DNA of 64,000 nucleotides from Nitrospina sp. (GTDB taxonomy: Bacteria > Nitrospinota > Nitrospinia > Nitrospinales > VA-1), in NCBI GenBank assembly GCA_018653085.1, contig JABIAY010000046.1, positions 48,883 through 112,882 of the forward strand. The letters run 5' to 3'. The notes beneath the pieces were generated by a model. It ran no database searches. It saw nothing but the letters and a program-made list of their open reading frames with translations, and was not told the DNA's origin. How positions within the stretch are numbered: the first letter of the stretch is position 1; every line of letters starts with the position of its first letter. The translations under genes and the position numbers were made by a program. This document shows, piece after piece, positions 11,051 through 63,414 of the stretch.

Positions 11051-11389
11051 TTGCATACCGTTTACAAGGCACTTTCTCCCGAAGAGGTCGAGCGCATTAT
11101 CGCATACTGCCAAAGCCACACGATACAGAATGGCGGATTGTTTGAGGTTTATCCCGGTCCGGACGGCTTAATGAAAATGGTGGTCGTCAATTCCTCTCCG
11201 GAAGATGAACCGCTGGATAAGTTTCGTCCTCTGGGAGCTTTTTACTGCAATTACCTCGGTCCCGGCATTATCTCACTGGAAGAGGAAGACCCCCACCATG
11301 AAGGCATGCCGTCGGCTAAACGCCATATCGAAGCCATCAAACAAGTGATCGACGACCTCCAGCGTGCCACTAGGCGTGGGGCCAACTAG
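11051..11389 (+). CDS. hypothetical protein; C-terminal residues encoded by the repeat element
   Basis: TTG start after GGAG; protein-like composition. Confidence 0.65.
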   Translation: MHTVYKALSPEEVERIIAYCQSHTIQNGGLFEVYPGPDGLMKMVVVNSSPEDEPLDKFRPLGAFYCNYLGPGIISLEEEDPHHEGMPSAKRHIEAIKQVIDDLQRATRRGAN

Positions 11390-11499
11390 CTATGCACATT
11401 TACCTCTGCGGGGGAGAAAATGAGCAAGCACCCATCAAGCCTCCTATACTTCTTGCTCGCCAAATAAAGTTATGTTCTCTGGGTCCAGCGTCACGCTGG
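11367..11499. repeat. modular intergenic repeat (A forward; B and D reverse)
   Basis: CCACTAGGCGTGGGGCC; reverse complement of CTTTATTTGGCGAGCAAGAAGTATAGGAGGCTTGAT; GGTCCAGCGTCACGCTGG. Confidence 0.85.
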
Positions 11500-12243
11500 T
11501 TATTCGCCGATGCGGAGGTGGACGTTTTCGCCCCGGTAAGAAAACACTACGCGATTCGATTCAATATGCGTGAGGGTAGCTGATTGAACCGTATCACCAA
11601 CACGGACTTTGCGGTTACTGCTTTCGGACGTGGCAACAAAAATGTGGTTGGAAGAACTTCCCTGAGAAAAAAAGATGATGCCTTTTACTTTCAGTTGGGG
11701 AATAGAAACTCCTCGTGTGGCCGACTCCGCAGGGAAGGCAAAAGACTCCGGTTGTTCCACCGCTAGTGTTGCGGTTTGAATCAAATCACGAATTTCGTTA
11801 ACCTCTCTATGCACCTCAGGTTCTGAAAAGGACTCGCGAATTTCCGCCACGGGCGGTGAGAAAGTCTCTACAACCGAGGGCAAATTTTCGTTGACCCTCT
11901 CTTCGTAGCGCCGCTCCTGCTCGGAAATGTTAGATAAGGGAATGCCCACTGTCGTTGCAGACCCTTTCTTGTAGGCAAGTGGTAATTTTTGTGCCGGATT
12001 CGCCTGAGGAAAATAGGTCGCTTCATTATTTTTGGCGGATGGCTTGAGCCCCCAAACCAGGGCTAAACCGATTAGGACTCCCGTTATAGCCCAGCCCGCA
12101 GACATAAATCTTTTACTGGAAACTTTGAACGGCTTGCGGGGCTTATGATCTTCTCGCAGGACAAGTTCCTTGAGATCCAGATCTTTTTCCAGCAGCCTTT
12201 TATCTTCTTCCAGTTTTTTGAGCGTCTCTAATATTGTGCTCAT
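11500..12243 (-). CDS. GspB/ExeB-like type II secretion accessory protein
   Basis: MSTILETLKKLE N-terminus, single TM helix, C-terminal KVKGII...VRVGD...IESNRVVF domain; lies downstream of ExeA. Confidence 0.75.
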   Translation of the reverse strand: MSTILETLKKLEEDKRLLEKDLDLKELVLREDHKPRKPFKVSSKRFMSAGWAITGVLIGLALVWGLKPSAKNNEATYFPQANPAQKLPLAYKKGSATTVGIPLSNISEQERRYEERVNENLPSVVETFSPPVAEIRESFSEPEVHREVNEIRDLIQTATLAVEQPESFAFPAESATRGVSIPQLKVKGIIFFSQGSSSNHIFVATSESSNRKVRVGDTVQSATLTHIESNRVVFSYRGENVHLRIGE

Positions 12244-12268
12244 TCTGTTCCGCTTTCAATAAAATAGG

Positions 12269-12400
12269 CCACTAAGCGTGGACCAGTGTGCAATCGCTTC
12301 TGGCGAGCAAAGAGTTATCTCGGCCTAATAAGCTATTGCTCATTGGGTCGCGCGTTATGTTCCTCATTTACCTTCGTGCCCCGAAGGGGTATCACGCTGG
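12269..12400 (+). repeat. modular intergenic repeat (A-B-E)
   Basis: CCACTAAGCGTGGACCAGTGTGCAATCGCTTCTGGCGAGCAAAGAGTTATCTCGGCCTAATAAGCTATTGC...CCTTCGTGCCCCGAAGGGGT. Confidence 0.85.
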
Positions 12401-12407
12401 CGCCGGT

Positions 12408-14522: not shown

Positions 14523-14831
14523 AGTGTTTTATCCAATCGGGTTGATAACCAATTTTAATTTGCCTTTAGTAAGACTAAAAAGCCAAACCCCAATAACCTA
14601 TTGATATTTAATGTTTAATTCTTCTTGCAAAAAAATTTCCAAAAACTTTGTAAATATAATAAAAACAATAGGTTAAAGATTAGCCCTCAAAGCGCAGCAT
14701 GATTCCTAGCCTGAAGGATGACCAATAACACCTTAATATACAAATAGTTGTGCAAAATGTAAACAAAAAATCAGCGCCGGGTTGGAGAAAGCCAAAAAGC
14801 CTGCCTGTGCTAGGATGGGAAATACGACAAA

Positions 14832-15026
14832 TTGAGGTTGGAAATCGTGAGGGAATCCTCTAAAAAAATTCTTAAATGTCCGATCTGCAAGGAGCCATCG
14901 GAGAGAGATAAAAACAAAAATCCGTTTTTACCCTTTTGCTCAGAACGGTGCCGAACCCTTGACATGGGGGCGTGGCTGGATGGTAAATATGTTATCGAGG
15001 AAAACGAACCCGACTCGGAGTATTAA
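14832..15026 (+). CDS. yacG: DNA gyrase inhibitor YacG
   Basis: CPIC...PFCSERCRTLDMGAW...YVI zinc-finger signature; exact start uncertain. Confidence 0.9.
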   Translation: MRLEIVRESSKKILKCPICKEPSERDKNKNPFLPFCSERCRTLDMGAWLDGKYVIEENEPDSEY

Positions 15027-15215
15027 ACCGGGACAAACAAAATCCGCCGTAAAACCTTGCGTCTCTGCATACCTCCCCAAAACTACGGGTAACTCTGTAA
15101 ACCTAAAGTTTTTATTGGCTTGATACCTTGTTTTTTATGCAATAGTTATAGGGCAAAGTTGCGCCCACTTTAATCCCTCCTTGGCAGGAAGGGAGATATT
15201 AAAAAAACTCGAATT

Positions 15216-15256: not shown

Positions 15257-15285
15257 GCCTACAAACAATTAGTAATGGAGATGCC

Positions 15286-15999
15286 ATGAGCAAAGCAGTA
15301 TTAGGAAGAAAACCTGTTAAGGCCTATGGAGGAAACGGGCGATCCGCAATTTATGAATATGGCGATGGGACAGGTTTTATGAGAAACAGCGGATCAATAA
15401 CCTGGAGAAACTTTAATCCGGGGGCTATTAACAGTGGAGATTTTTCAAAAAGGCATAGCTCAATCGGAAATAATGGGCGCTTTGCCGTGTTCCCGGATTA
15501 CGAAACAGGCAGAAACGCAACATACGATTTATTACGCGCGTCATCATACAATGAGCTGACTCTAGCTCAAGCTATTTCTAGATATGCGCCTAAAAAAGAT
15601 AATAACGACACAGAAGCCTACATCAGGCATGTCGTTTCATTTGCCGGCCTCGGGCGCGATCAGTCGATGGCTGATTTAACAGAGAGAGAACGCTGGTCTA
15701 TTGTCGATGCAATAATAGAGAAAGAAGTATATGAAGCGGGTGATATTGTTGCTCTTTCCAATATTAAAAAGAAATACAAATGGCGAATGCCAAAAGACGA
15801 AAGTGCAAGGGAGAACCACAAAGCAAGAGATGGAAATATTTATAGTTGGGACAATCCTCCCGAAGACGGTCACCCCAGTGAAGCCCCCGGATGCAGGTGC
15901 TGGGCCGAGGCATATGAGTTTCCGCGTGTAGAAAAAGCCTCGCCCCCACGGCTAGTGGTGGCTACACATCGTTCAGCGGGGCATTCATCGTTCTTATAA
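15286..15999 (+). CDS. phage-like protein: lysozyme-like (NPG motif) domain fused to a Mu gpF-type minor head domain
   Basis: WRNFNPGAI...FAVFPDYETG...TLAQAISRYAP..DNNDTEAY, then KYKWR...H..RDG.IYSWDNPP..GHP....GCRC; ATG 15286 after GGAG. Confidence 0.65.
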   Translation: MSKAVLGRKPVKAYGGNGRSAIYEYGDGTGFMRNSGSITWRNFNPGAINSGDFSKRHSSIGNNGRFAVFPDYETGRNATYDLLRASSYNELTLAQAISRYAPKKDNNDTEAYIRHVVSFAGLGRDQSMADLTERERWSIVDAIIEKEVYEAGDIVALSNIKKKYKWRMPKDESARENHKARDGNIYSWDNPPEDGHPSEAPGCRCWAEAYEFPRVEKASPPRLVVATHRSAGHSSFL

Positions 16000-17113: not shown

Positions 17114-17138
17114 AGTTTTTTTCGATCCTGCGTCCCAT

Positions 17139-17280
17139 CACTAGCCGTGGGGGTAACGTGCACGTTATATTTTTCCTTAGCCTTCGTGCCCCGGAGGGGT
17201 AATAACCCTCGCTGGCGAGCAAAGAGTTATCTCAGCTTAAAAAGTAATTGCTATACTCCCTCCCACGGGAGTGGGCTAGC
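17139..17280 (+). repeat. modular intergenic repeat (A-like, E, B, C)
   Basis: CACTAGCCGTGGGG...CCTTCGTGCCCCGGAGGGGT...TGGCGAGCAAAGAGTTATCTCAGCTTAA...CCCTCCCACGGGAGTGGG. Confidence 0.85.
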
Positions 17281-17396
17281 GGAGGTTCTCCGCTAAAACG
17301 ATTTTTTGTTTATACAGGATGCCTCGAAACTTGTAAACGAATTTGAAAAAATGCTACAATTTTCAATAGTTTATAGCATATTCACGTCCCCATAAA

Positions 17397-18701: not shown

Positions 18702-18755
18702 CCCACTCCCGTGGGGGGGGATGGCAAGAGCCCATCAAGCCGAGCTAACCTATGC
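18702..18755 (-). repeat. modular intergenic repeat (partial B-C, reverse)
   Basis: CCCACTCCCGTGGG...GGCAAGAGCCCATCAAGCCGAG between the convergent apt and DUF4911 genes. Confidence 0.75.
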
Positions 18756-19013
18756 TTACCTGTCAACGCTATTGCTTATTGCCTTCCCCGCTAAGGGACG
18801 GAAGGGGATTTCCTTTGCAAGGGCTTCGGTGAGCTTGCGAACATCTTCCAGGTAATCGGGAGAGATCATGAGTTCAATAATTCCACGGGAGGGGTCCAGC
18901 GTTCGCACTACCGCCAGTTCTTCGTATCCCTCAAAAATGCTGACGATGTATGCGATGTCTTTTTTATCGACTTCAACCTGCCATTGAATAGAATCGGTAT
19001 GCACTGCCATCAC
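18756..19013 (-). CDS. DUF4911 family protein
   Basis: [27 protein letters not shown]; coupled to mnmG. Confidence 0.75.
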
Positions 19014-31162: not shown

Positions 31163-31240
31163 GGTATACCGCTGGAGGTAATAGGGCTAACAGTGCGCAA
31201 GAGCACCGTGTTATTGCTACCTGCCACCCACGCTAGTGGG

Positions 31241-32510: not shown

Positions 32511-33436
32511 GTTTTCTTCTCCAGTATTTTCCTGGTATTTTCAATATCCTGACTTATCTGAACGACCAGATCGTCAGCGGACTTGAACTCTATTTCACTG
32601 CGAATGCGTGCCACAAACTGCACTTCAATTTCATGACGGTAGATCACTTGATTAAAATCGAAAATATGCACCTCGACACTTAATCGATCGCGATGAAAGG
32701 TGGGGTTAAACCCGATATTGGCAACCGCATCATAGGACTTGTTTTCATAAACAACCCGAACCGCATACACCCCTGTTCCGGGTATCTGGACCTTACTGGT
32801 ATCAATGTTGGCGGTTGGGAATCCAATAGCCTGCCCGGTTTTATAGCCGGAAATAACCGGGCCTGTTATGGAATAATCCCTGCCCAGGAACTGGCTTGCT
32901 GTTTCTACCTGCCCGGCCTCTATCAGTTCCCGCACATGAGAACTGCTGACGGTATGTTCATTGAGCTTGAAGGGCTCCACTACATGAACCTGAAAGCTAA
33001 ATTCCTCTCCCATCTTTTTGAGGTAAGGAATTGTCCCTTCCCTGCCTCGACCAAAAGCGTAGTCGAAGCCAACTACAATCTCCTTCACCCCTATTTTTTC
33101 AAAAAGAATATTTTTGGAAAAATCACGAGGTTGCTGGTCCGCGAACTGTCTGGTGAAGTCAGCGCAAATGACCAGATTGATTCCGCAGGAATCAATCAAT
33201 TCCATCTTTTTATGGAAATGAGTCAACAGGGGGGGTACTTTTTCCGGCGCAATGATCTTTAATGGATGCGGCTCGAAGGTGAACGCAATGGACGTACCTT
33301 TATGCGCCAAAGCCAATTCCGCCGCTTTACGGAACAGGGTCTGATGGCCCACATGGACTCCGTCAAAATTGCCAATCGCCATCACAGGATATGGAATGGG
33401 GCCGGTTATATTTTTTGTTCCTCTAATAATTCTCAT
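32507..33436 (-). CDS. ribF: bifunctional riboflavin kinase/FAD synthetase
   Basis: IGNFDGVHVGH, TFEPHP, VSSS, GFPTANI, GFNPTF, EVHIFDF. Confidence 0.97.
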   Translation of the reverse strand: MRIIRGTKNITGPIPYPVMAIGNFDGVHVGHQTLFRKAAELALAHKGTSIAFTFEPHPLKIIAPEKVPPLLTHFHKKMELIDSCGINLVICADFTRQFADQQPRDFSKNILFEKIGVKEIVVGFDYAFGRGREGTIPYLKKMGEEFSFQVHVVEPFKLNEHTVSSSHVRELIEAGQVETASQFLGRDYSITGPVISGYKTGQAIGFPTANIDTSKVQIPGTGVYAVRVVYENKSYDAVANIGFNPTFHRDRLSVEVHIFDFNQVIYRHEIEVQFVARIRSEIEFKSADDLVVQISQDIENTRKILEKKT

Positions 33437-33568
33437 AAAACTGACCTTATACTACCTTAAACCTCTTATTATTCAAGGCCCATGGGAAATAACCCGGGGG
33501 AGTTCTGATGACAATTGCCCCTCTAATCTGCTAGAATGGCTTTCATCGGAACAATATGGAGTGTTTGA

Positions 33569-33865
33569 ATGTTTGATATCGGATTTTTTGAACTGATGAT
33601 TTTAATGGGTATCGCCGTTGTGGTGATTGGCCCACAAAACCTTCCCAAACTCGCAAAAGCCATCGGTAAAGGCTGGGGCGAGTTCCAAAATACTTTCAGC
33701 GGCCTGAAAAAAGAAGTTATGGATGAAGCGGAAGGACTCAAGCAAACCGTCAACATCGATGCGCTGGAACAAGACATCAGTGCCGCAACAAAAGTCGATG
33801 TGGATGTCAATCTTTCAGCCGCCGATCTGGATATTGCCGGCGACCTGAGAAAAAAAGACGACTAA
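33569..33865 (+). CDS. tatB: twin-arginine translocase TatB/TatA subunit
   Basis: MFDIGFFELMIL..IAVVVIGPQNLPKLAK. Confidence 0.8.
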   Translation: MFDIGFFELMILMGIAVVVIGPQNLPKLAKAIGKGWGEFQNTFSGLKKEVMDEAEGLKQTVNIDALEQDISAATKVDVDVNLSAADLDIAGDLRKKDD

Positions 33866-33868
33866 CCA

Positions 33869-33963
33869 CCACTAGGCGTGGGGCCAGTGTGCCGTCGCTT
33901 TATTTGGCGAGCAAAGAGTTGTCTCGGCGCAATCAAGCTCTTGCCCAGTTGCCTCCCCTGCTA
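33869..33963 (+). repeat. modular intergenic repeat (A-B)
   Basis: CCACTAGGCGTGGGGCCAGTGTGCCGTCGCTTTATTTGGCGAGCAAAGAGTTGTCTCGGCGCAATCAAGCTCTTGCC, 3 nt after the tatB stop. Confidence 0.9.
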
Positions 33964-33983
33964 ATTCCCTTCTGGAATATTCA

Positions 33984-34364
33984 ATGATAAGTTCCGTAAC
34001 GTTTCACCCTTTCATTTCCCATTTCTCCCCTGCTTTATTCGTTGCCGGATTAGCCCTGCTTTTTCTGGCTCACAAAAAAAATGATGAAAAATTGAAAGCC
34101 GCAGGAGCTTTTAATTTAAGCTTGGGTCTTTTAGCCGCTATAGCCGCCGATTTTTCCGGGATGGTCTCCGTTGATATTAACTTGCTTACCGTTGTGGCGG
34201 TTGAAGGGCATCAGGGCTACTCCTTCCTGTTTACGATCCTTTATGGATTCTCTACCGGCTACGCCTACACCAACGCCTTCTCCAGAACTGCGTTGGGATA
34301 TTATATGGCAGGATTCCTGGCAATGGGCATTTGCCTGTTTTCCGGCTACCAACTGGTTTTTTAG
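33984..34364 (+). CDS. DUF2231-like 4-TM membrane protein
   Basis: FHPFISHF, EGHQ, SGYQLVF; hydrophobic. Confidence 0.65.
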   Translation: MISSVTFHPFISHFSPALFVAGLALLFLAHKKNDEKLKAAGAFNLSLGLLAAIAADFSGMVSVDINLLTVVAVEGHQGYSFLFTILYGFSTGYAYTNAFSRTALGYYMAGFLAMGICLFSGYQLVF

Positions 34365-34371
34365 TAGCCTG

Positions 34372-34785
34372 TTAGTGTGTTGAAACTCCGAAGCGATGAA
34401 CCAGTTCCCCACCGAAGTAACCGGTGATGAGAACACAAACCCCTCCCACAGCGATGATCAGGAAATACAAAATCCGGGGTTTACGCAGGTAACGGGAAAC
34501 AAGCATTGCGGAAATAAATACTCCGGCAGTAATAAACGCAAACTTCAGGTGGGTCGCTAGAAAGTCCCTGAACTTTTCCGTATTTTCCAGGCTGATCATT
34601 CCCAGGAACCCTACAATCAGAACCGGGAACAAACACAGGAACCCTAAGCGGATGTTGAATCGGCCTGCGGTTTCTGCCACTTCGTCTTTCCGCAGGGCAC
34701 CATAAATTTCAAACACTACTCCGCTGGTCAACAAGCCCACGGGAAAGTGAACGATCAAGGGATGAAGCTTGGCAAAGAAAACCAT
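34372..34785 (-). CDS. DUF2231-family membrane protein
   Basis: LHPLIVHFPVGLL, TGYFGGELVHRFGV. Confidence 0.8.
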   Translation of the reverse strand: MVFFAKLHPLIVHFPVGLLTSGVVFEIYGALRKDEVAETAGRFNIRLGFLCLFPVLIVGFLGMISLENTEKFRDFLATHLKFAFITAGVFISAMLVSRYLRKPRILYFLIIAVGGVCVLITGYFGGELVHRFGVSTH

Positions 34786-34789
34786 GAAA

Positions 34790-35596
34790 TTATTTTCTAC
34801 CGGGCGCGGTCCGGCGGCGGTCCACTTCAGCCAGGATGATGCCTGCCGCTACCGATACGTTGAGGGACTGCCCTTTTCCGGGAATACGGACCAGAGTATC
34901 GCACCGTTGTTTGACCCGGCTTGAGAGCCCCTCCTGTTCATTTCCCATTACCACCACTGCGGGAAATTTAATTTTAGCACTGGAAAGAGTTTCTTTTGCA
35001 TCTGCATCTGCACCCACGACAAACCAGCCCTGCTCCCGACAATCTCTTAATGAGGAAGAAAGATCAGTGCTGGTAAATATGCGAACCGTTTCAAGTCCTC
35101 CTTCGGCCACTCTCGCGGCGGAAGAGGGAATAGCCGAAACCTTTCCGTTGCCGGGAACCATCAAACCCTCCACGCCAAAAAATGCGCAAGTCCGCAAAAT
35201 CGCTCCCTGGTTATGCGGGTTATCAATTCCGTCTAACGCCACCACCAGACCCTTGTCGGGCATTTTTCCACGGATCAGTCGATGCGCGGATTCCGGCATA
35301 AGAGGTTGGACTACCATCACTATCCCCTCATGGTGAACACCTGAGGCGACTTTATTAAGGGACTCCTGATCCAGTTGGCGGTAAGGAATTTTATTTTCCC
35401 CACAAAAAGCTTTCACCTCTTTCAACTGGGAGGTCCGGGCGCGACTGAAAAACAAACGCAAGAGACTTTTCGGTCTGGCCTTGAACGCGCTCATGCAGGC
35501 GTTCCAGCCATAGAGGGTGAACTCTTCCTGCTTTTTATATTGTTTGCGCACCCGGTCGGCACGTGTTTTTACGAATTCTTTCTTTTCTTGATTCAA
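34790..35596 (-). CDS. TrmH/SpoU-family RNA methyltransferase
   Basis: HEG, LDGIDNPHNQGAILRT, MGNEQEGL, SLNVSVAAGI. Confidence 0.9.
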   Translation of the reverse strand: MNQEKKEFVKTRADRVRKQYKKQEEFTLYGWNACMSAFKARPKSLLRLFFSRARTSQLKEVKAFCGENKIPYRQLDQESLNKVASGVHHEGIVMVVQPLMPESAHRLIRGKMPDKGLVVALDGIDNPHNQGAILRTCAFFGVEGLMVPGNGKVSAIPSSAARVAEGGLETVRIFTSTDLSSSLRDCREQGWFVVGADADAKETLSSAKIKFPAVVVMGNEQEGLSSRVKQRCDTLVRIPGKGQSLNVSVAAGIILAEVDRRRTAPGRK

Positions 35597-35650
35597 CTAG
35601 TATCCCCTGAAAAATTTTTACTCTAACCACAAACAAAGCAATTGCAAATT

Positions 35651-35669
35651 GAGTCCAGCGTCACGCTGG
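35651..35669. repeat. repeat module D
   Basis: GAGTCCAGCGTCACGCTGG, 3 nt beyond the dus stop. Confidence 0.75.
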
Positions 35670-35672
35670 TGG

Positions 35673-36722
35673 CTAACCGTGACCGCCCATCATGAACGCT
35701 TCACTATCTTCAAAGCAGGGAGTGGGAAGGCGCGCAACCTGGTTGAAAAAGTTTTCCGCTTGTTGCATGACCTCTGCCGCTGAATAGCACTCAAACATAT
35801 TTTTTCTGAACTTTGCCGCGCCAGGGTAGCCGAATGCCAGCCAGGAAGAAAACTTTCGCAACAAAATAAGAATGGAGCGGGTATCGTAATTTTCGCGCAA
35901 TCCATTCAAATAACGGTTGAGCAGTTCGATGCTGGAACGTTGGGCATCCACACCGACACATTCTTTGAATATCCAGGGATTTCGCAAAGCCCCGCGACCG
36001 ATCATCACTGCATCCACCCCGGTGTCCTGCAATCTTCGTTTTGCCTGATCGGCACTGCGAATATCTCCATTGCCGATAATCGGTAATTTCGCCCTGTTTT
36101 TGACTTCGGCGATGAGGTCCCAGTTCGCCTTGCCCTCATAGCCCTGGGCGCGGGTACGCCCATGAATAGCTACCCACTCGCAACCTGAATTGTAAGCCGC
36201 CTGCACGCATTCATGAATGGTCAGCTCATTTTCGTTCCAACCTGTTCTCATTTTGACGGTGAGAGGCAGACGAATCCCTTTTTTAATAGTGGAGAGGAAA
36301 GTTTCCAAATAAGCCGGGTCACGCATCAATGCCGCCCCGCATCCTTTTTTCACCACTTTTTTTACCGGGCAACCCATATTGATATCGACAAAATCCGCTC
36401 CCGTCTCTTCCACCACGTTCACTGCCTGAACGATGTCCTCCGGCGACTCGCCGAAAAGCTGAACCCCGACAATTGTTCCGGGATTTTTATGAATGCGCAT
36501 CATTTTTCGGGTCTTCTCGGAATTGTAAAAAAGCCCTTTCGCCGACACCAGTTCTGAAATCAAGACACCCGCCAGCATTTCATCCATCAACTGACGGAAG
36601 CAGACATCGGTGATCCCCGCCATGGGGGCCAGCCAGAACGGGCCCCTGGCACGCGTTATCAAGCCTGCTTGAGTCTGCGGCAAGGAAGAGTCCGATAAAT
36701 GTGACGATTGCATTAAGTTCAT
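35673..36722 (-). CDS. dusB: tRNA-dihydrouridine synthase (DusB-like)
   Basis: LAPMAGITD, QLFG, DINMGCPV, IHGRT, GNGDI, MIGRG. Confidence 0.88.
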   Translation of the reverse strand: MNLMQSSHLSDSSLPQTQAGLITRARGPFWLAPMAGITDVCFRQLMDEMLAGVLISELVSAKGLFYNSEKTRKMMRIHKNPGTIVGVQLFGESPEDIVQAVNVVEETGADFVDINMGCPVKKVVKKGCGAALMRDPAYLETFLSTIKKGIRLPLTVKMRTGWNENELTIHECVQAAYNSGCEWVAIHGRTRAQGYEGKANWDLIAEVKNRAKLPIIGNGDIRSADQAKRRLQDTGVDAVMIGRGALRNPWIFKECVGVDAQRSSIELLNRYLNGLRENYDTRSILILLRKFSSWLAFGYPGAAKFRKNMFECYSAAEVMQQAENFFNQVARLPTPCFEDSEAFMMGGHG

Positions 36723-37753
36723 AGCCGCTCTATATCTGAGTCACCTAAAAAAGATTGAAAATGTGAAGGAGGTGGCACATTAAGTTCCAGATAACGATCA
36801 AAACATTGGAACCTCAGCTTCCAGGCATGCAGTCCATATTCATAACTTCCCGAGTCCCCTTCACCATAAACATCGTCATTTAAAATTGGTAAACCCTGAC
36901 TGGATAAATGCACGCGAATCTGATTGGTTCTGCCCGATAAGGGAGTCACTCTTAAAACCGAATGAGTGGAGGTGGAGGTCAACCTCTCTACCTGGGTAGT
37001 CGCGGGTTTTACATTCCTGACTCCCTCACCCACCCCCCGCTGTGCCCCTGCCACTACTCCGATAGGTGCGGTCACGGTGAACTGATCTTCCTTTGGCTTT
37101 CCCCTGACCACAGCCAGATATTCTTTTTGTATCCGGTGGCTTTGAAACTCTTTCATTAAAAAACCTGCCGCTTGACGGGAGCGTGCAAACACGATCAGCC
37201 CGGTAGTGGTTGCATCCAGCCGCTGTACAGGACGTGGAATCTCCTCGGGAAACGCTTTCTTCAAAACTTCCGTCATGCTGTTCTGAAAATACCGTCCGCT
37301 CGGGTGCACAGGAATAGGCGCAGGTTTATTGAACACCCGGATATGCCTGTCTTGATAAACCACAGTCAACCTGCGATCCGCAGGAGGTTCCTGACGAACC
37401 CCCGCATGGGTGATGATGCGATCCCCCTCATTAAGGATACTACCGGGACGGGCCTTATTCCCGTTCACCATGATATCCCCGTTTAATATCTGTGCGATCC
37501 AGGCTTCCCGACTCTGATAGGGAAACCGCGATGAAAAATATTGTTCTACGACCAAACCATGATATTCGGGCGCGATTGTGGATTTATAAATCTGCTGAGA
37601 TGCCGGGGGCTGGTAAAGTGCGTTCACCAGATCATCTTGATGGCGACTGGTCGCAGGAGACGCAGATAGCAAGGACTCGTTAAGCCGAGACAACCCTTTG
37701 TCAGCCAGAGAAAGCGATGGCACACTGGCCCCACGCCGAGTGGCTAGTTCCAT
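36719..37753 (-). CDS. RluA-family pseudouridine synthase; start either ATG 37753 (through the repeat) or GTG 37627
   Basis: S4-like region, NKPAPIPVHP, QRLDATTTG, KEYLAVV, GRTNQIRVHL, LHA. Confidence 0.88.
   Translation of the reverse strand: MELATRRGASVPSLSLADKGLSRLNESLLSASPATSRHQDDLVNALYQPPASQQIYKSTIAPEYHGLVVEQYFSSRFPYQSREAWIAQILNGDIMVNGNKARPGSILNEGDRIITHAGVRQEPPADRRLTVVYQDRHIRVFNKPAPIPVHPSGRYFQNSMTEVLKKAFPEEIPRPVQRLDATTTGLIVFARSRQAAGFLMKEFQSHRIQKEYLAVVRGKPKEDQFTVTAPIGVVAGAQRGVGEGVRNVKPATTQVERLTSTSTHSVLRVTPLSGRTNQIRVHLSSQGLPILNDDVYGEGDSGSYEYGLHAWKLRFQCFDRYLELNVPPPSHFQSFLGDSDIERL
37653..37743 (-). repeat. modular repeat (A-B), in frame with the RluA ORF
   Basis: Reverse complement CCACTCGGCGTGGGGCCAGTGTGCCATCGCTTTCTCTGGCTGACAAAGGGTTGTCTCGGCTTAACGAGTCCTTGC immediately after the yqgE-like TAG. 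Confidence 0.9.
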
Positions 37754-38316
37754 TGAGGGTTGACGGGAGCGTTTATCAGGTATTCGTAATCCTTGCCCAT
37801 GGACTTGACGGCATGAGCCCAGATGCTATCTTCATTTTCCTGAAAAACAAATTCGCTCTGGGCCTCACAGGTAAGCCAGCTGAGCCGGTCCATCTCGCCT
37901 GCAAGCTGGCCCGCACCCCAACCGGAATAACCCATATAGAATCTGATATTTTTTTCCGGATCTTCAATCCGTGTCATTAAGTTATCCAGCAGTTCCCAGC
38001 TCATTCCCATATAGACTCCATCACAAATGGCATCCAGTTCCGGCAAAGGCGTTTTTGATTGGCAAAGGTAAAAGACCTGTGAGGGAGACACCGGGCCTCC
38101 GATAAAAATTTTCCCGGAGTGGGAGCCCGACACACCCACTTCTTCAAAAACCTCTTTGGCGCTGATCGGGGCAAGCCGGTTAATCACCAGGCCAAACGAA
38201 CCCTGTTCGTCATGATTGCATAACAACACAACCGTCCGGGAAAAATTGGGATCCGGCAAGACAGGATTAGCGATAAGGAAATAGCCTTTCCCATACTGCT
38301 CATTAGATGCTGACAT
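37744..38316 (-). CDS. YqgE/AlgH family protein
   Basis: LPDPNFSRTVV, GLVIN, GGPV, GYSGWGAGQL..E. Confidence 0.92.
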   Translation of the reverse strand: MSASNEQYGKGYFLIANPVLPDPNFSRTVVLLCNHDEQGSFGLVINRLAPISAKEVFEEVGVSGSHSGKIFIGGPVSPSQVFYLCQSKTPLPELDAICDGVYMGMSWELLDNLMTRIEDPEKNIRFYMGYSGWGAGQLAGEMDRLSWLTCEAQSEFVFQENEDSIWAHAVKSMGKDYEYLINAPVNPQWN

Positions 38317-38327
38317 AGGATTTTAAA

Positions 38328-38948
38328 TTACAGGTTCAGGGACTGGAGTTTTTTAAAGTTGGGGCCTGTCCTGGCCTCTTCTTGCCCCTCAGCGGAAGAA
38401 AAATTATTGTCCAAAGCAATACTTGCCAGTTCGGGAAAATTTTTCGATCGGGAAAGGGCCAATATGCCATCATTCCCAATTTCGTTCTGAGCCAGATCCA
38501 GATCCTCAACTTTTTTCAACTGGTTCTCCTGAGCAAGGATAATTGCCCCCTCATCCTTTATGCAATTCCGGTAGAGGTTGAGGGATTTGACCTTTTGCAA
38601 TGATTTCGAGTTTACCAATGACCGGATGCCTTCCGGCCCTATGTCGTTACCTCCAAGCTCCAGCCAGTTGACTTTGGAAAATAACTCAGTCTCAGCCAAC
38701 AGCTTGACTCCGGCATCACCAATACGATTGCCTCCAAGGTTTAAGCGCCGTACTTTGGAAACACGCTCATCCCGGCTAATGATCGTCATACCATTGGGTC
38801 CAATGCAATAGCCTTTCAAGTTCAAGTCTTTACCGTCTGGCGTGAGCGTTTCGGAGATCACTTTTTCCATGATTTCCTGCAATTTTTCACCGGTAAAACT
38901 GCACGGTTCCGCAGGTTTATAAATATCAAAATGTGTAATGGAAGGCAT
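38328..38948 (-). CDS. leucine-rich repeat protein (RI-like)
   Basis: Repeated LxLxxNxIGxxG units. Confidence 0.85.
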   Translation of the reverse strand: MPSITHFDIYKPAEPCSFTGEKLQEIMEKVISETLTPDGKDLNLKGYCIGPNGMTIISRDERVSKVRRLNLGGNRIGDAGVKLLAETELFSKVNWLELGGNDIGPEGIRSLVNSKSLQKVKSLNLYRNCIKDEGAIILAQENQLKKVEDLDLAQNEIGNDGILALSRSKNFPELASIALDNNFSSAEGQEEARTGPNFKKLQSLNL

Positions 38949-39064
38949 TAAATCCCCTTTAATTTAAGATAAAAGCGTTCTAATCCCCTGACAATTCAAA
39001 AGGGTAAATTAGCAAAACAAACAAAAAAAACGACTAATTCGATTTCAAACAGGCTATTATAAGG

Positions 39065-39093
39065 TTGACAGAAAATCAATTATATTTTAAATT
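39065..39093 (+). promoter_or_regulatory. sigma70 promoter for hisI-hisG
   Basis: TTGACA-17 nt-TAAATT. Confidence 0.65.
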
Positions 39094-39104
39094 TCCAAGC
39101 TTCA

Positions 39105-39370
39105 CCACTAGGCGTGGGGCCAGTGTGCCATCGCTTTATTTGGCGAGCAAGGAGTTGTCTCGGCGCAATCAAGCTCTTGCCCAGTTCCCTCCCACGGGAG
39201 TGGGTGGCGGGCAAAGAGTTGTCTCGGCTTAACGAGTCTCTGCTATTTGCCTCCCCTGCTAAAGGGCCACTAGGCCCGGCTAAGCGTCCGGTGGCTACTG
39301 CAATGGCTTTTATTGGCTAGCGGCGACTCATATCGGCTTAACGAGTTTCTGCCGTGGGCCTCCTGCCAAG
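39105..39370 (+). repeat. cluster of three modular repeat units (A-B-C, B, A-like, B) upstream of hisI
   Basis: CCACTAGGCGTGGGGCCAGTGTGCC...GAGTTGTCTCGG (twice), CCCTCCCACGGGAGTGGG, and a third degenerate B (GCAATGGCTTTTATTGGC...TCGGCTTAACGAG). Confidence 0.9.
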
Positions 39371-39432
39371 AGGTAATTAACTGAAATTTCGGCGCATTTT
39401 GGTTGCGTTTTAACGTATTCAGAGGAGTTTTT

Positions 39433-39804
39433 ATGAAATTGGATTTTGATAAAATGGGCGGTCTTGTCCCAGCCATCATTCAGGATGCTAAAACCGGCAA
39501 GGTTCTGATGCTTGCGTACATGAACCCAATTGCCTGGGAAAAGACCCTGGAAACCGGGAAAGCCTGGTTCTACAGCCGGTCACGCGACAAGCAATGGATG
39601 AAAGGTGAAGAAAGCGGCAATGTGCAGATCGTCAAGGAAGTGTTTGTCGATTGCGATGACGACACGGTTCTGCTGAAAGTCGAGCAGGTGGGCAATGCCG
39701 CCTGTCATAAAGGTTACACCAGTTGTTTTTTCAGAAAAGTAAACGGTGACGTGAAAATCATCGAAGAAAAAGTTTTCGATCCGGAAAAAGTCTATAAGAA
39801 GTAG
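39433..39804 (+). CDS. hisI: phosphoribosyl-AMP cyclohydrolase
   Basis: [34 protein letters not shown]. Confidence 0.97.
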
Positions 39805-39844
39805 TCCCCCTATAAATAATTTATCTTAAGAAAGAAGACAATCC

Positions 39845-40723
39845 ATGAGTGGTAACGTATTAAAGCTGGGAATTCCCAAAGGAAGTCTGGAAGAAGCAAC
39901 GGTAAAACTTTTTGGTCGAGCCGGTTACAACATCCGTATTAAGAGCCGGTCCTATTTCCCCAGCATTGATGACGATGAAATCGAATGCATGTTGATCCGT
40001 GCCCAGGAAATAGCGCGTTATGTAGCAGATGGGGTGCTGGATGCAGGGCTGACGGGTAAAGACTGGATTCTCGAGAACCGGGCCGATGTCGAAGAGATCG
40101 CGCCTCTGGTTTATTCAAAGGTTTCTGCCAAGCCAGTACGCTGGGTGCTGTGTGTTCCCAACGACTCCAAAATCCAATCCGTTAAAGATATGCAAGGCAA
40201 GCGCATCGCCACCGAAGTGGTGAACCTGACCACAGACTGGCTGAAAGGCCATGGCGTGACCGCCAATGTCGAGTTTTCATGGGGAGCCACCGAAGTTAAA
40301 GCTCCCAAACTGGTGGATGCCATTGTTGAAGTTACCGAGACCGGGTCTTCCCTCAAGGCTAATAACCTGCGTATTGTGGATACCCTGATGGAATCGACCA
40401 CTCGCTTCATCATGAACAAAGAAGCCAGCCAGGACCAGTGGAAGAGGAATAAAGTCGACCGCCTTGTTTTGATGTTGCAGGGAGCCATGGCCGCGAACGG
40501 TCGAGTGGGACTGATGATGAACGCGCCGAAACAAAATCTCGATGCGATAATCAATATTTTCCCGCCAGGAAAAAAACCCACCATCTCTGAACTCAGCGAC
40601 AAGGACTGGGTGGCCCTGAATGTGATTCTGGAAGAAAAACTGGTGCGGGATTTTGTTCCCGATCTTAAAAACATCGGCGCTGAAGATATCGTTGAATACC
40701 CGTTAAACAAAATCATCCACTAG
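39845..40723 (+). CDS. hisG: ATP phosphoribosyltransferase (long form)
   Basis: [37 protein letters not shown]-terminal regulatory domain. Confidence 0.97.
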
Positions 40724-40817
40724 CCACTAGGCGTGGGGCCAGTGTGCCGTCGCTTTATTTGGCGAGCAAAGAGCTGTCTCGGCTTAAAAAAGCCATTGCC
40801 AGTTTACCCCTCCGGGG
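40724..40817 (+). repeat. modular intergenic repeat (A-B-partial C)
   Basis: Starts directly after the hisG TAG; CCACTAG occurs twice in tandem. Confidence 0.9.
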
Positions 40818-40964
40818 CATGAAGTTTATGGATGGGGATATAACACCCTCTCCGGGGAGTGAGTCGCTGGGAAATGGTCAGAACGTTATGGCGCGAGCGA
40901 TGATCATTGCCTTCTGGATGAGATTTTTCAAGCCCCTCCCTAAGTTAATGAACCGGGTTACCGT

Positions 40965-41684
40965 ATGAAAGACCCCAACTCAGAGTCACAGGAAACTGAA
41001 TCCTCCTCCCCAGAGGAGGAGGCCACACAAAACAACACAGAAACTGAATTTGAGGAACAGGAGGTCTTGCCTCCGGCAGAGAAAAAAAAATCCGGGGCAG
41101 GAAAAATCTTTTTATTTCTGGTTTTCGTTCTGGCAGGCTCAGGCGGGTATTTATATTTCAACAATCTCATTCCCGCTGAAATTTTAAACCTCGTTTTCCC
41201 GCAACCGAGCTCATCCCCTGCGTTGATAGCCACAATACCGCCAACCCCTCTACCGGAGGAAGCAGTTGTCGAGCCGGAGGTTGTCGCGCCGGAAGTTATC
41301 GAAAACTCTGAGCCTGTTGCTGAAGAAGTCGAGGTTGTTATTCCTGAGCCTCCTGCTGTTCCCCCTGTGCTTTCTGAAGCCCCGCATGTCAGTGGCAGTC
41401 CCGCTGAATCCTTTCCAGCAATCCGGGTCTCCGGTAATAATTCTGATCAAGGTTCGGAAGCAAAAGAGGAAGAATATTTGCAGGATACGGCACCTATTGT
41501 TCCTCCTGTTGAGGAACTCCCTGAACCTCCTGAACCCGTTGAGGAGCCTGCGCCCTTAGCGGAGCGCAACGAATCCGTTCAGGCCTATCTCGACTTCATC
41601 GAGTCTTCAGTGCAGAAGCTGGGGGAGTGGATTAGAGAGGGTTTTAATCTGGGCTGGGATTATTTAAAGAACCAGTTGGGGTAA
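40965..41684 (+). CDS. hypothetical single-TM protein, Pro/Glu-rich
   Basis: TM helix IFLFLVFVLAGSGGYLYF and an acidic low-complexity linker. Confidence 0.75.
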   Translation: MKDPNSESQETESSSPEEEATQNNTETEFEEQEVLPPAEKKKSGAGKIFLFLVFVLAGSGGYLYFNNLIPAEILNLVFPQPSSSPALIATIPPTPLPEEAVVEPEVVAPEVIENSEPVAEEVEVVIPEPPAVPPVLSEAPHVSGSPAESFPAIRVSGNNSDQGSEAKEEEYLQDTAPIVPPVEELPEPPEPVEEPAPLAERNESVQAYLDFIESSVQKLGEWIREGFNLGWDYLKNQLG

Positions 41685-48803: not shown

Positions 48804-48817
48804 CGGGTCTTTTTAAT

Positions 48818-48944
48818 GGAAGCTTTGCATAACCCGAGATTCTTCGTCACGTTGTTCCTCAGAATGACAAAATAGTTCTTTATTGTCATGCTGAGCTTGT
48901 CGAAGCATCTCGCTTTTCTGCTTTATTGGTTTACGCAAAGGTCC
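48818..48944. repeat. REPIN/MITE-like long imperfect hairpin
   Basis: Ends CTTTGCATAA / TTACGCAAAG; internal pairings GAGATTCTTCG/CGAAGCATCTC and CTCAGAATGACAA/TTGTCATGCTGAG. Confidence 0.7.
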
Positions 48945-48950
48945 CCTTAC

Positions 48951-53706: not shown

Positions 53707-53790
53707 CCACTCGGCGTGGGGCCGACTGGCAATAGCTTTTACTGGCAAGCGAGAAGTATAGGCGGCTTAATGAGCTCTTGCCAGCTCCCT
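53707..53790 (+). repeat. modular intergenic repeat (A-B)
   Basis: CCACTCGGCGTGGGGCCGACTGGCAATAGCTTTTACTGGCAAGCGAGAAGTATAGGCGGCTTAATGAGCTCTTGCC directly after TAA. Confidence 0.88.
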
Positions 53791-53805
53791 TTTAAGTAAA
53801 AAAAC

Positions 53806-53880
53806 AAATCCCCCCAACCCCCTTCGTGGAAGGGGGGCTTCAATGGACCCCTCTTTTACAAAGAGGGGCTGGGGTGATTT
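53806..53880. repeat. double-hairpin REP-like element with AAATC...GATTT ends
   Basis: CCCCCTTC-GTG-GAAGGGGG and CCCCTCTTT-TAC-AAAGAGGGG hairpins. Confidence 0.8.
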
Positions 53881-55250: not shown

Positions 55251-55340
55251 CCAGCGTGACGCTGGACCCAATGAGCCGTGGCGTTTACTACTGGTAAAAA
55301 GTTGTCTCGGCTGAAAAAGCCATTGCTCACACCCTCCCAC
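55251..55340 (+). repeat. modular intergenic repeat (D-B-partial C)
   Basis: CCAGCGTGACGCTGGACCC directly after TAG; AGTTGTCTCGGCTGAAAAAGCCATTGC; CCCTCCCAC. Confidence 0.85.
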
Positions 55341-56327: not shown

Positions 56328-56346
56328 GAGTCCAGCGTCACGCTGG
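56328..56346. repeat. repeat module D
   Basis: GAGTCCAGCGTCACGCTGG between convergent genes. Confidence 0.75.
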
Positions 56347-58503: not shown

Positions 58504-58509
58504 GCCAAG

Positions 58510-59394: not shown

Positions 59395-59400
59395 CGTTGC

Positions 59401-60510: not shown

Positions 60511-60513
60511 AAT

Positions 60514-61320: not shown

Positions 61321-62138
61321 CAGAGTACAAAGAAAAATAAAGATGTGAATATCAGATCGGCGATGATCACCAGAATCATCGAGACCACCACTGCGGTACG
61401 GGTATTCTGCCCGACCATTTCCGCTCCGCCTTCGATAATGAAAGCCATGTAACTGCCAACCATGACGATGATGACGGCGAACACCGCGCTCTTGACCAGC
61501 CCGGTCACCACATCTTTAATCACCATCGCGTCCAGCGAGTTGTTGACATACGTCACCGGGTCGATTCCTAATGTGGTGACACCAATCAAAAACCCGCCTA
61601 AAATTCCCATCAGGTCTGCCATGATGGTCAGACACGGGAGCATAATTAAAAGAGCCAGAAACCGGGGAGTGATTAAAAACTTTACCGGATTCAATGCCAT
61701 GATCTCAAGAGCCAGAATCTCATCGGAAACTTTCATCGTTCCCATTTCGGCGGTGAACGCGGCCCCAACCCGACCGGACATGACCAGCGCTGTCATCAAC
61801 GGTCCCAACTCACGCAAAATGGCAACGCCTACCAAAGCGCCGACAAACTCCAGAGCTCCCAACCGGCTCAACTGATGCGCCGACTGAAACGCAAGAATGA
61901 CCCCGATCAGAAACGAAACCAGAAAAACGATGGTGGTGGACTTGACCCCAACCTCCTCCATCTGCGTCCACACCGGGCGCCATTTATTGGGTTTGCCACG
62001 CAGGGGTTCTATAAAGGTGCAATACAAAGTGGCACGGGTGAGATAATACAATCCGCTGATTTCCTTGAAAAAACTTTCAAAGACACCGGCAAATTCGAAT
62101 CCCCTTCTCCCGATAAATCCAAAAAATGTTCTGACCAT
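61320..62138 (-). CDS. mlaE: MlaE ABC transporter permease
   Basis: RELGPLMTA, GRVGAAFTAEMGTMKVSDEI, GGAEMVG..T..AVV. Confidence 0.92.
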   Translation of the reverse strand: MVRTFFGFIGRRGFEFAGVFESFFKEISGLYYLTRATLYCTFIEPLRGKPNKWRPVWTQMEEVGVKSTTIVFLVSFLIGVILAFQSAHQLSRLGALEFVGALVGVAILRELGPLMTALVMSGRVGAAFTAEMGTMKVSDEILALEIMALNPVKFLITPRFLALLIMLPCLTIMADLMGILGGFLIGVTTLGIDPVTYVNNSLDAMVIKDVVTGLVKSAVFAVIIVMVGSYMAFIIEGGAEMVGQNTRTAVVVSMILVIIADLIFTSLFFFVL

Positions 62139-62174
62139 GAATCTCTCCCCGAGCGGCGAACCGCCGCAGGTAAC

Positions 62175-62434
62175 TTGCAATCACTTTTGCTGGCAAGCAA
62201 AGAGAGATCTCGGCTTAATGAAGCCCTTGCCCTTTGCTTTCCCGGCGTGCTCTGACGAACCTCATATTTAGAAGCCCAACGGTTATTGTTCGCCTAAAAG
62301 GTTCTGACCTATTGCCTATCGGGGCTACCCGACCCACTCCCGTGGGAGGGGTAAACTAGCAACCACTCTTCAAGCCGAGCTAAACTTTAGTTTGCCAGAA
62401 AAAGCTATTGCACACTGGCCCCACGCCTAGTGGG
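62175..62434. repeat. two modular repeat units in opposite orientation (B forward; A-B-C reverse)
   Basis: TGCAATCACTTTTGCTGGCAAGCAAAGAGAGATCTCGGCTTAA; CCCACTCCCGTGGGAGGG...AAGCTATTGCACACTGGCCCCACGCCTAGTGGG. Confidence 0.88.
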
Positions 62435-62762
62435 CGAGGGCTTGTTCTTTTGAATCGAAAACTTCAAATACTGTTAGCAGGCGTGCGATCTCAAACACGT
62501 CCTTGACGCCGGGAGTTAAAGCCGCAAGCCGAAACTTGTTGTTGCTACTGTGGCTCCACTGCAATCCCTCTACAAGAGTGGCTATCCCGGAACTGTCGAT
62601 ATAGGAAACTCCCGACAAATCCACAACGACAACCTTATTGTTGTTTTGAAATAGGGGAGTCAAAGCATCTCGCATCTGCGTTGAAGAACTCATATCAATA
62701 TCGCCGCTGACTGTTATCGTCACCGAACCCTCGGTCTTATCCAGTTTTAAATCTATGGCCAT
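62427..62762 (-). CDS. STAS-domain anti-sigma factor antagonist
   Basis: GDID, VVDLSGVSYIDSSGIATLV, VFEIARL. Confidence 0.92.
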   Translation of the reverse strand: MAIDLKLDKTEGSVTITVSGDIDMSSSTQMRDALTPLFQNNNKVVVVDLSGVSYIDSSGIATLVEGLQWSHSSNNKFRLAALTPGVKDVFEIARLLTVFEVFDSKEQALAH

Positions 62763-62764
62763 GG

Positions 62765-63208
62765 TTATCCCTTGTCCTTATCGTGCGCGGAGGTAAGTTC
62801 GGTTTTTAATTTTTTCATCATGGTCAGCAAAGTCCCCTTCGCCCGGTTGGTGCAATAGCTGACCTCGTCCATAATTTCATTCATAAAATGCGTGCCCAGT
62901 CCGCCTGGTTTTATGTCATCCAGGCGACGCGGTTTTATCTGGCTGGTGTCGCATTGCTTGCCGTAGTCGCGAATCTGAACCTTGAAGTCATCTCCCTCGA
63001 TGGTAAAGGTAGCCTCGATGGGTTCATCGCAGGGGCCATCGTAACCATGCTTGATAACATTTGCGCAAGCCTCATCCACACAAAGGATCAGGCGACGGGC
63101 CGTATCAGCGGGAACCTCATGGCTGTCCAAAAGTTCCTGCAAAACTTTACGGATCAACCCCAGATATTTGGGATCGCCCGGAATAGATAATTTTATCGGT
63201 GGGGCCAT
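62765..63208 (-). CDS. RsbW/SpoIIAB-like anti-sigma factor serine kinase
   Basis: VDEACANVIKHGY, IRDYG, GGLG..FM...MD.V. Confidence 0.9.
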   Translation of the reverse strand: MAPPIKLSIPGDPKYLGLIRKVLQELLDSHEVPADTARRLILCVDEACANVIKHGYDGPCDEPIEATFTIEGDDFKVQIRDYGKQCDTSQIKPRRLDDIKPGGLGTHFMNEIMDEVSYCTNRAKGTLLTMMKKLKTELTSAHDKDKG

Positions 63209-63368
63209 AGTATCAACTTATTGGTTTTTAAAAAGAGAAGCCGGTAGATTCCAGAATCCACCATTATTCAATGATATCACCCGCTAGCGCGGGAGGCAAC
63301 CCACTACGTGGGAGGAAGCACTGAGGGGCTAAAAAAAGGGCAAGTGGTTCCGATCCCTGAACAATGCC

Positions 63369-63414
63369 GGGTCCAGCGTCACGCTGGTTGCTAGTCGGCC
63401 CCACGCCTAGTGGG
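63369..63414 (-). repeat. modular intergenic repeat (A-D, reverse)
   Basis: GGGTCCAGCGTCACGCTGG...GGCCCCACGCCTAGTGGG. Confidence 0.85.

Follow-up and report, generated by a model that had tools for sequence, protein, structure and literature searches.

The window analysed here is a 64,000-nucleotide stretch of a Nitrospina sp. genome (contig JABIAY010000046.1), and its intergenic regions carry many copies of a modular palindromic repeat. On balance, we favour the interpretation that this repeat is a Nitrospinaceae-specific mosaic family resembling repetitive extragenic palindromes (REPs) and bacterial interspersed mosaic elements (BIMEs), the units of which would be non-autonomous DNA elements moved in trans and then shuffled by slippage and recombination. 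This kind of bacterial repeat is already familiar, and for the Nitrospina family itself we found no published description. A full-text literature search, with subscription-only papers outside its reach, returned no paper linking Nitrospina or Nitrospinaceae with REPs, REP doublets forming hairpins (REPINs), BIMEs, REP-associated tyrosine transposases (RAYTs), or miniature inverted-repeat transposable elements (MITEs). In this abundant marine nitrite oxidiser, roughly one-tenth of all intergenic DNA consists of these repeats.

Abundance and anatomy of the repeat units

A first-pass annotation of the window had described five recurring modules, A to E, and all five lie far above chance expectation. 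Module patterns were scanned with dinucleotide shuffles as controls (100 for A). At up to two mismatches, module A matched nine times in the window and never in the 100 shuffles, module C five times and never in shuffles, and module E three times against 0.03 in shuffles. The 11 rows returned for module D (shuffle mean 0.11) represent five clear loci, with a further doubtful two-mismatch row at 12998; the row count is inflated because D is a near-palindrome and scores on both strands. A profile built from the genome copies of B found 14 B copies in the window.

The whole genome (3.16 Mb, 47% GC, 78 contigs, rated 94.9% complete) holds 171 exact copies of hairpin A and 300 at up to two mismatches, a threshold at which D has 241 copies and C has 55. 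An iterated profile found 417 copies of B. When intergenic DNA was compared with itself, stretches with at least five paralogous matches came to 42 kb, or about 10% of intergenic DNA, and fell in 439 of 1865 intergenic regions.

When all A copies and all 305 near-full B copies were sorted along with their flanking sequence, a directional unit of about 100 nt emerged that consists of a 5' head hairpin, a short linker, a moderately conserved body B of about 65 nt, and a 3' head hairpin. The pattern "[A or D]-B-C" that had been read from the window holds genome-wide among these 305 units. Their 5' heads are A (136), D (37), or G-type (20), and their 3' heads are F-type (52) or C (35), with many more in minor classes. 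The head stems are short (4-7 bp) and GC-rich, and they are diverse, with 66 distinct stems among 5' heads and 74 among 3' heads. A perfect hairpin of at least 4 bp was present in 271 of the 5' heads and 236 of the 3' heads, compared with 189 of 610 shuffled heads. In 5' heads, the usual loops are TAGGC, TCGGC, or TAGC, and in 3' heads they are GCTA, GGCTA, or GGGA; as these loop types are opposite, the two heads face opposite ways, as REPs do in a BIME. Similarity between a 5' head and the reversed 3' head of the same unit averaged 5.05, compared with 5.59 for random pairings, and the A/A combination occurred in only 15 of the 136 units having an A head. Head-to-tail tandem arrays with a period of 97-98 nt are found in the window's genome and in one relative.

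Module E is a separate mini-element of about 40 nt with 87 copies at up to three mismatches. It was found in at least six host contexts and at differing places within them: in B (at two positions), in the loop of hairpin D, in head A, at the head/B junction, in a second body type, and in an unrelated MITE. Since E nests in other modules, part of the shuffling noted in the first-pass annotation is nesting. The second body type just mentioned follows hairpin A in many copies (GGTACTGCATTGCCC...CTCAAGCGCAATACTTT; e.g., positions 258274 of contig C46 and 49944 of contig C55 in the window's genome, G000) and is usually followed in turn by a hairpin pair of the CCCCCTGATAAGGGGG type. One subfamily of B (42 of 417 copies) carries the motif AATCAAGCNCTTG at a fixed place, with examples in the window at 33930-33942 and 39166-39178. 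Per kb, the motif is about 22 times denser here than across the genome at large, and it fits a consensus for integration host factor (IHF), which makes it a putative IHF site.

Distribution among genomes

At up to one mismatch, 40 of 120 genomes from the phylum contain hairpin A, and nearly all of these belong to two genera; the hairpin was found in 21 of the 22 other genomes of the window's genus and in 10 of 17 genomes of a second genus. Copy number per genome ranges from 0 to 247, the highest value being that of the window's genome. An exact-match scan for an 18-nt pattern from the core of B, covering one genome for each of 185,579 species, returned at least 92 stretches. Among the 80 matches listed, 70 were in records assigned to Nitrospina, Nitrospinaceae, Nitrospinales, or Nitrospinota, and the remaining 10 were single, chance-like matches in unrelated taxa. 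The lineage specificity that had been proposed is thus borne out both by the near confinement of hairpin A to two genera and by the listed matches to the B core.

Gain, loss, and remodelling of copies

We compared 16 sites of the window with the syntenic DNA of relatives, at about 75-93% identity. Synteny around the repeats is conserved among the relatives. Old shared copies are present at some sites (e.g., 33869 and 37653), and at many sites the module sets differ between species (e.g., 40724, 12269, and 38949). One relative (G053) has three empty sites, at 12269, 17139, and 35651. The unit at 62333-62433 is missing from G063, G053, and G073, with flush junctions, no target duplication, and at most one ambiguous base. 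G068 has another unit at exactly the same position, one whose outer head differs and whose B has diverged much further. An older hairpin, with a GCTA loop, has its foot at this junction, so that comparison of these sequences points to either precise excision or repeated insertion at one hairpin foot.

Polymorphism at one site was visible in ocean metagenomes, where a 10-nt older hairpin stands at 40724 instead of the 141-nt A-B-E block. This short state is carried by one DNA contig (run X10) and one RNA-library contig (run X15), and several relatives have the same 10-nt hairpin at this site. The mobility suggested in the first-pass annotation thus finds support in empty and filled orthologous sites among relatives and in this metagenome polymorphism. 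Dispersed copies within the genome are related at some distance; the nearest dispersed paralogue of a unit has a median identity of 84.6%, and identities of 95-98% were reached by 17 of 287 units. Long-range metagenome "joints" that seemed to skip thousands of bases were rejected as rearrangements and proved to be cross-matches between repeat copies. The repeats are also a practical nuisance: in two metagenome DNA runs, the listed contig pieces end at or near them.

The window also holds a separate 138-nt MITE (48812-48949), the ends of which match the inverted repeats of a 1192-bp IS5-like insertion sequence (IS) with seven copies in one closed relative. This MITE is missing from one DNA contig and one RNA-library contig of the ocean metagenomes.

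Placement relative to genes

Gene coordinates were taken from a crude length-greedy caller of open reading frames (ORFs; 2792 ORFs, 88% coding), and 55 of the 417 B copies lie more than half inside ORFs called in this way. Leaving out 22 copies near contig edges, 395 B copies were placed, of which 129 lie in convergent, 207 in tandem, and 59 in divergent gene contexts. Among the 2714 intergenic regions that serve as baseline, 423 are convergent, 1863 tandem, and 428 divergent. B is therefore enriched between convergent genes (129 of 395 copies vs. 423 of 2714 regions); there was no enrichment in divergent regions, although those are the longest. Where the flanking genes are in tandem, 134 B copies share their orientation and 73 oppose it (35% antisense).

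The repeats also contribute to gene ends directly. An in-frame TAG stop of a co-oriented ORF is supplied by 74 of 300 A copies, compared with one in the opposite direction. The tetranucleotide CTAG is under-represented in the genome (2113 occurrences vs. about 3144 expected); of these occurrences, 957 nevertheless touch non-coding sequence or stop codons, which together make up 12% of the genome. The 28 ORFs adjoining repeats in the window encode ordinary housekeeping domains by Pfam (including TatA, Dus, HisI, HisG, MnmG, DciA, and MlaE). Because the repeats sit on gene ends and differ between species and between co-occurring strains, they drive the turnover of gene ends and untranslated regions (UTRs) in Nitrospinaceae.

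Two individual sites bear on gene starts. A conserved sigma-70-like promoter match (39065-39093) lies upstream of the array at 39105, with hisI/hisG on the other side (region 39065-39402), and the array replaces about 100 nt of spacer found in eight relatives. As it stands between the promoter match and hisI/hisG, the array is probably part of a 5' UTR. The longest ORF for a pseudouridine synthase (36719-37753) runs through the repeat at 37640-37743; its Pfam domain does not begin until residue 139, and the true start therefore probably lies on the downstream side of the repeat.

Structural conservation of heads and body

The heads are constrained as hairpins, in DNA or RNA, and B has no conserved fold. 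We evaluated the stem of hairpin A in 290 related copies, after 81 unrelated pattern matches were dropped. The stem is CCAC/GTGG in 219 copies, and in 30 copies both sides have changed in ways that keep Watson-Crick pairing, giving five stem types (e.g., CCGC/GCGG, CTAC/GTAG, and GCAC/GTGC). Wobble pairs occur in five copies and broken stems in 36. Pairwise identity is about 92% for heads and about 70% for B, the head figure being inflated by the way heads were selected (ascertainment bias).

The first-pass annotation had proposed that B diverges while keeping a terminal stem. The complementarity of the B ends stands, at about 75% over 10 nt, but its maintenance by compensation does not. Among 282 distinct copies, 74.6% of cells at the terminal ends fall in standard pairs, compared with 74.7 +/- 0.3% in column shuffles and 26-50% in slid registers of the same stem. 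For the 13 window copies, 76% of cells pair in the named stem and two of the ten pairs have changed on both sides. Because pairing equals the level given by column composition, the stem is a conserved feature of the consensus. There was no long-range coupling in B, as the 30 column pairs with the highest mutual information are all local and mark subfamilies. Folding of B was equally unremarkable: RNAalifold gave -3.08 kcal/mol for the 13 window copies, B alone had a median folding z-score of -0.85, and six whole units folded as DNA had z-scores from -0.40 to -1.53, in both cases no better than shuffles. The expected covariation is hence absent from B, an outcome limited to B since the short head stems do show compensatory changes.

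Searches at the RNA level were similarly negative for the repeats. Rfam returned only two tRNAs across the whole window at the gathering threshold, and no match in 38950-41000 at E-values up to 1. Seven sites resembling intrinsic terminators were found in 33000-41500, none of them within repeats. Contigs from RNA libraries (X15 and X16) cover parts of some repeats (e.g., 35562-36092 and 40090-40753), although contigs cannot prove transcripts or RNA ends, and stretches that no contig covers are uninformative.

Search for a mobilising enzyme

A RAYT or TnpA (Y1) gene flanked by the modules had been suggested as the mobiliser, and we found none in the window's own assembly or at the Y1 loci fetched from relatives. 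Matches to the Y1 family (PF01797) do occur in seven of 22 genomes of the genus; around the ten Y1 loci that were fetched, there was no module or B within 1.5 kb of the Y1 match. One of these genes, in G053, is RAYT-like; its 325-aa product has a Y1_Tnp domain and a weak match of the DnaA_C type, and a 27-nt inverted repeat unrelated to the modules brackets the gene. Solo copies of this 27-nt repeat are also present in the window's genome, which has no Y1 match, with five exact copies and nine at up to two mismatches (G000 C24:10720, C44:423/446, C48:17592, C52:10200, and others), several of them within about 1 kb of contig ends. With no Y1 gene in the window's assembly, no modules beside the ten Y1 loci, and an unrelated repeat around the G053 gene, RAYT was rejected for now as the mobiliser. 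The ends of the IS5-like and rve elements of relatives (two IS examined) had no likeness to B or the heads.

Genes bracketed by A on both sides were another place to look. There are 26 of these, and the 20 scanned with Pfam are housekeeping genes save one. The exception encodes a XerA/IntI-like tyrosine-recombinase homologue (261 aa; G000:C15:18589-19374) that is bracketed by heads. It has no catalytic tyrosine segment, as the protein ends right after the LLG(H/R) box. Of 120 genomes from the phylum, 51 have one copy of the gene at a syntenic position, among them members of genera that lack hairpin A. Head hairpins colonise its 5' UTR and stop codon in the window's genus. In the second genus, hairpin A is present in all nine genomes that have the gene and in one of the eight without it, the related genomes not being independent. 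We did not adopt this protein as the mobiliser, given its missing catalytic segment, its synteny, and its occurrence in genera without hairpin A.

The statement that the window holds no transposase was checked in part: the 28 ORFs adjoining its repeats are housekeeping, and five transposase families are absent from the whole assembly.

Interpretation

Under the interpretation that we favour, the units would be non-autonomous DNA elements that pass through single-stranded hairpin intermediates and are mobilised by an enzyme supplied in trans, and this enzyme would be other than the inverted-repeat-flanked RAYT-like gene of the genus. The site comparisons show units being gained or lost whole next to the foot of hairpins already present, with no duplication of the target, and sites being remodelled in place. 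Once a unit had inserted, its modules would be shuffled, truncated, and concatenated through slippage and recombination between the short hairpins they share. Any effect at the RNA level, such as 3'-end protection, would be a by-product. Several results weigh against this account. The assembly has no match to Y1_Tnp (PF01797), TnpB-type, DDE_Tnp_1, rve, or IS110 families, although for multi-copy IS this negative is uninformative, because closed relatives carry multi-copy IS5-like and rve elements that may have gone unassembled here. Three single-contig relatives likewise have no Y1 gene, and two of them carry 54 and 87 copies of A. The unit at 62333-62433 is the sole clean single-unit indel among the 16 sites compared, and it may be either an insertion or an excision. 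Many of the other site differences are replacements, not clean insertions (e.g., 38949 and 40724), and could be produced by recombination alone. No pair of dispersed units among 287 is at least 98% identical, and there is therefore no sign of very recent bursts. The bias of units with respect to replication strand is weak (odds ratio 1.55, p = 0.046), and the position counts rest on crude gene calls.

The main rival, which we consider unlikely, dispenses with dedicated mobility and has the repeats spread and shuffled by host slippage, template switching, and gene conversion acting on GC-rich hairpins at gene ends. Orthologous sites often differ in module set rather than as filled vs. empty, as at 40724, where 10 nt are replaced by 141 nt; in the array at 39105, a repeated TGGC motif marks the point where a partial B is joined; and 5' and 3' heads are freely combined. 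All of this would be expected of host processes, as would the absence of the five transposase families and of near-identical unit pairs. Such processes account less readily for a 101-nt unit that is flush, absent in three relatives, and replaced by another unit at exactly the same junction in a fourth, for the nesting of E at many unrelated positions, or for a copy number from 0 to 247 within one genus. Moreover, about 400 copies dispersed among syntenic housekeeping genes call for an efficient copying route. A more novel account, in which the repeats are active mini-elements that target hairpin feet, leave no target duplication, and are moved by a non-RAYT, non-IS200 enzyme, possibly a host or domesticated factor reading short GC-rich hairpins with CTAG- or GNNA-type loops, strikes us as distinctly unlikely. 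If it were correct, the stronger conservation of heads than of B, with its ascertainment bias, would reflect present-day recognition by such a factor, and a candidate for binding the hairpins would be the XerA/IntI-like protein with its truncated catalytic part.

It is improbable that the repeats are functional RNA elements kept by selection on RNA structure, whether as 3'-UTR stabilisers, terminators, or a small-RNA family. The preference for gene 3' ends, the GNNA-type tetraloops of 3' heads on the sense strand of B, the covariation of head stems, the co-orientation of B with flanking genes in 134 of 207 tandem contexts, and the RNA-library contigs that reach into or across some sites (though these cannot prove a transcript) are all consistent with such a role. 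Nevertheless, B pairs at shuffle level and lacks coupling beyond local column pairs, its RNAalifold energy and the two of ten doubly changed stem pairs are modest, whole units fold at z-scores of about -0.4 to -1.5, Rfam had no match for the repeats, none of the seven terminator-like sites falls in a repeat, and 35% of copies are antisense to the flanking genes. The structured-RNA system offered as one option in the first-pass annotation accordingly did not hold up. Least probable of all is that the B units are ordinary MITEs, elements derived by deletion from a DDE insertion sequence, mobilised by that IS, and bearing terminal inverted repeats as well as target-site duplications. The B ends are partly complementary, multi-copy IS5-like and rve elements are present in closed relatives and would escape a draft assembly, and a genuine MITE with IS5-like ends lies in the window. 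However, the single clean junction (62333-62433) has no target duplication, the ends of the two IS examined are unlike B or its heads, the unit boundary is at the outer hairpins and not at the complementary B ends, and the units are directional with different heads at their two ends.

Copies within the window

Every site at which the first-pass annotation had placed a copy (11367, 12269, 17139, 18702, 33869, 35651, 37653, 39105, 40724, 51284, 53707, 55251, 56328, 62175/62333, and 63369) has at least one module, and the order of head, body, and head is visible by direct reading at five sites of the window. An A' variant at 15942 and extra B copies at 39205 and 39299 were absent from that list. 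Short A-like variants had been reported beside both tRNA genes; we recovered one directly downstream of tRNA-Leu, and inspection of the flanks of tRNA-Gln found nothing resembling an A-like head. The copies are collected in Table 1.

Table 1. Repeat copies and isolated heads in the 64-kb window.
Position	Strand	Feature	Basis
11367..11499	.	Hairpin A (11367-11383, +), inverted B (11411-11487, -), and hairpin D (11485-11499)	Module scans, B profile
12269..12400	+	A variant (CCACTAAGCGTGG), B (12281-12344), and D-type hairpin with loop split by E (12371-12390)	
15942..15958	-	Solitary A-type head variant	A scan
17139..17296	+	A-type head (CACTAGCCGTGGGGG), E (17181-17200) nested in 5' part of B, B (17197-17266), head C (17258-17275), and GCGGAGG..CTCCGC hairpin	
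18702..18790	-	Inverted unit: head C (18702-18719), B (18712-18784), and F-like head	
31210..31240	-	A-like head CCCAC TAGC GTGGG and beginning of B, directly 3' of tRNA-Leu	
33869..33964	+	Unit of A (33869-33885), B (33877-33959), and partial F head; diverged orthologous copy in most relatives	
35635..35670	.	B 3' end and hairpin D (35655-35669), between Dus and SpoU-methylase genes; empty (4 nt) in two relatives	
37640..37743	-	Inverted unit: A (37727-37743), B (37656-37735), and 3' hairpin; kept in closest relative (G063)	
39105..39380	+	Array: A, B, C, partial B (39205-39257), F, partial A, G-type head, and B (39299-39362)	
40724..40864	+	A, B, inverted E, and further hairpin (141 nt), directly after hisG stop codon	
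51284..51301	+	Solitary head C	C scan
53707..53806	+	A (53707-53723) then B (53715-53790)	
55251..55340	+	D (55251-55265) then B (55263-55338)	
56332..56346	.	Hairpin D within stretch of about 88 nt missing from G063	
62160..62242	+	G-type head then B (62169-62242)	
62333..62433	-	Complete 101-nt A-B-C unit	
63373..63413	-	Hairpin D (63373-63387) and inverted A (63397-63413)	

Comparison with known repeat systems

The REP/BIME-like character proposed for the repeats is upheld by their high copy number, extragenic position, alternating hairpins with conserved linkers, tandem arrays, and preference for gene 3' ends. We know of no sequence similarity between the Nitrospina repeats and BIMEs. One BIME linker contains an IHF site, and the motif of one B subfamily (42 of 417 copies), a putative IHF site, is a parallel to it. 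As defined in PMC2817692, BIMEs are REP hairpins that alternate in orientation and are separated by conserved linker sequences. The BIMEs of enterobacteria share with the Nitrospina repeats their high-copy extragenic hairpins in alternation, their conserved linkers, their single or tandem arrangement, and their placement after genes. The Nitrospina heads are much shorter, with stems of 4-7 bp compared with the REP palindromes of 20-40 bp given in PMC3733652. Also unlike BIMEs, the "linker" B is the longest and most recognisable part of the unit, and the heads come in dozens of stem variants.

The REPIN-RAYT systems of Pseudomonas and E. coli are similar in that their units, about 100 nt long, consist of two hairpins and what lies between them, that target duplication is absent, and that copy numbers differ among relatives; RAYT-like genes also exist in the window's genus. 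The two systems differ in that the heads of one Nitrospina unit are not inverted copies of each other, their similarity being below that of random pairings. They differ also in that there is no Y1 gene in the window's genome or in three closed relatives, and no module lies within 1.5 kb of the Y1 match at the ten loci fetched from the genus, whereas REPINs almost always flank the RAYT gene, according to PMC5581495.

Elements of the IS200/IS605 type end in subterminal hairpins that differ from each other, need no terminal inverted repeats, cause no target duplication, insert beside a short specific site, and excise precisely. These properties, and those of their gene-less derivatives, all fit the clean indel at 62333. 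On the other hand, the assembly has neither TnpA (Y1) nor TnpB, the Nitrospina units are far smaller, and they have no strong replication-strand bias, a bias that is far stronger in IS200/IS605-type elements. Arrays of gene cassettes beside an integron integrase, the setting of integron attC sites, were not found: the copies are dispersed among syntenic housekeeping genes, and the one head-bracketed IntI/XerA-like gene has no catalytic tyrosine segment.

A further parallel is found in the GTAG/CGTC-tagged REP superfamilies of Di Nocera et al. (2013; PMC3733652), which are small palindromes rich in GC that lie 3' of genes, in the spaces between convergent or tandem ORFs, with some overlapping gene ends. 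The Nitrospina repeats differ from them in that hairpin A has no conserved GTAG or CGTC left unpaired at its foot, its 5' flank being variable and its conserved tail GGCC; their recurrent tetranucleotide is CTAG inside loops, and D has CGTC only at the centre of its palindrome. The paper also notes that some RAYT genes lie between long inverted repeats with no relation to the REPs, and that certain REP families lack a dedicated transposase; the situation in Nitrospina matches on both counts. The family is a well-populated case of REP-like elements without a repeat-flanked RAYT gene and could help to find the mover of "orphan" REPs. Within the classes set out in PMC3733652, the Nitrospina repeats belong with the REP families that have no dedicated transposase.

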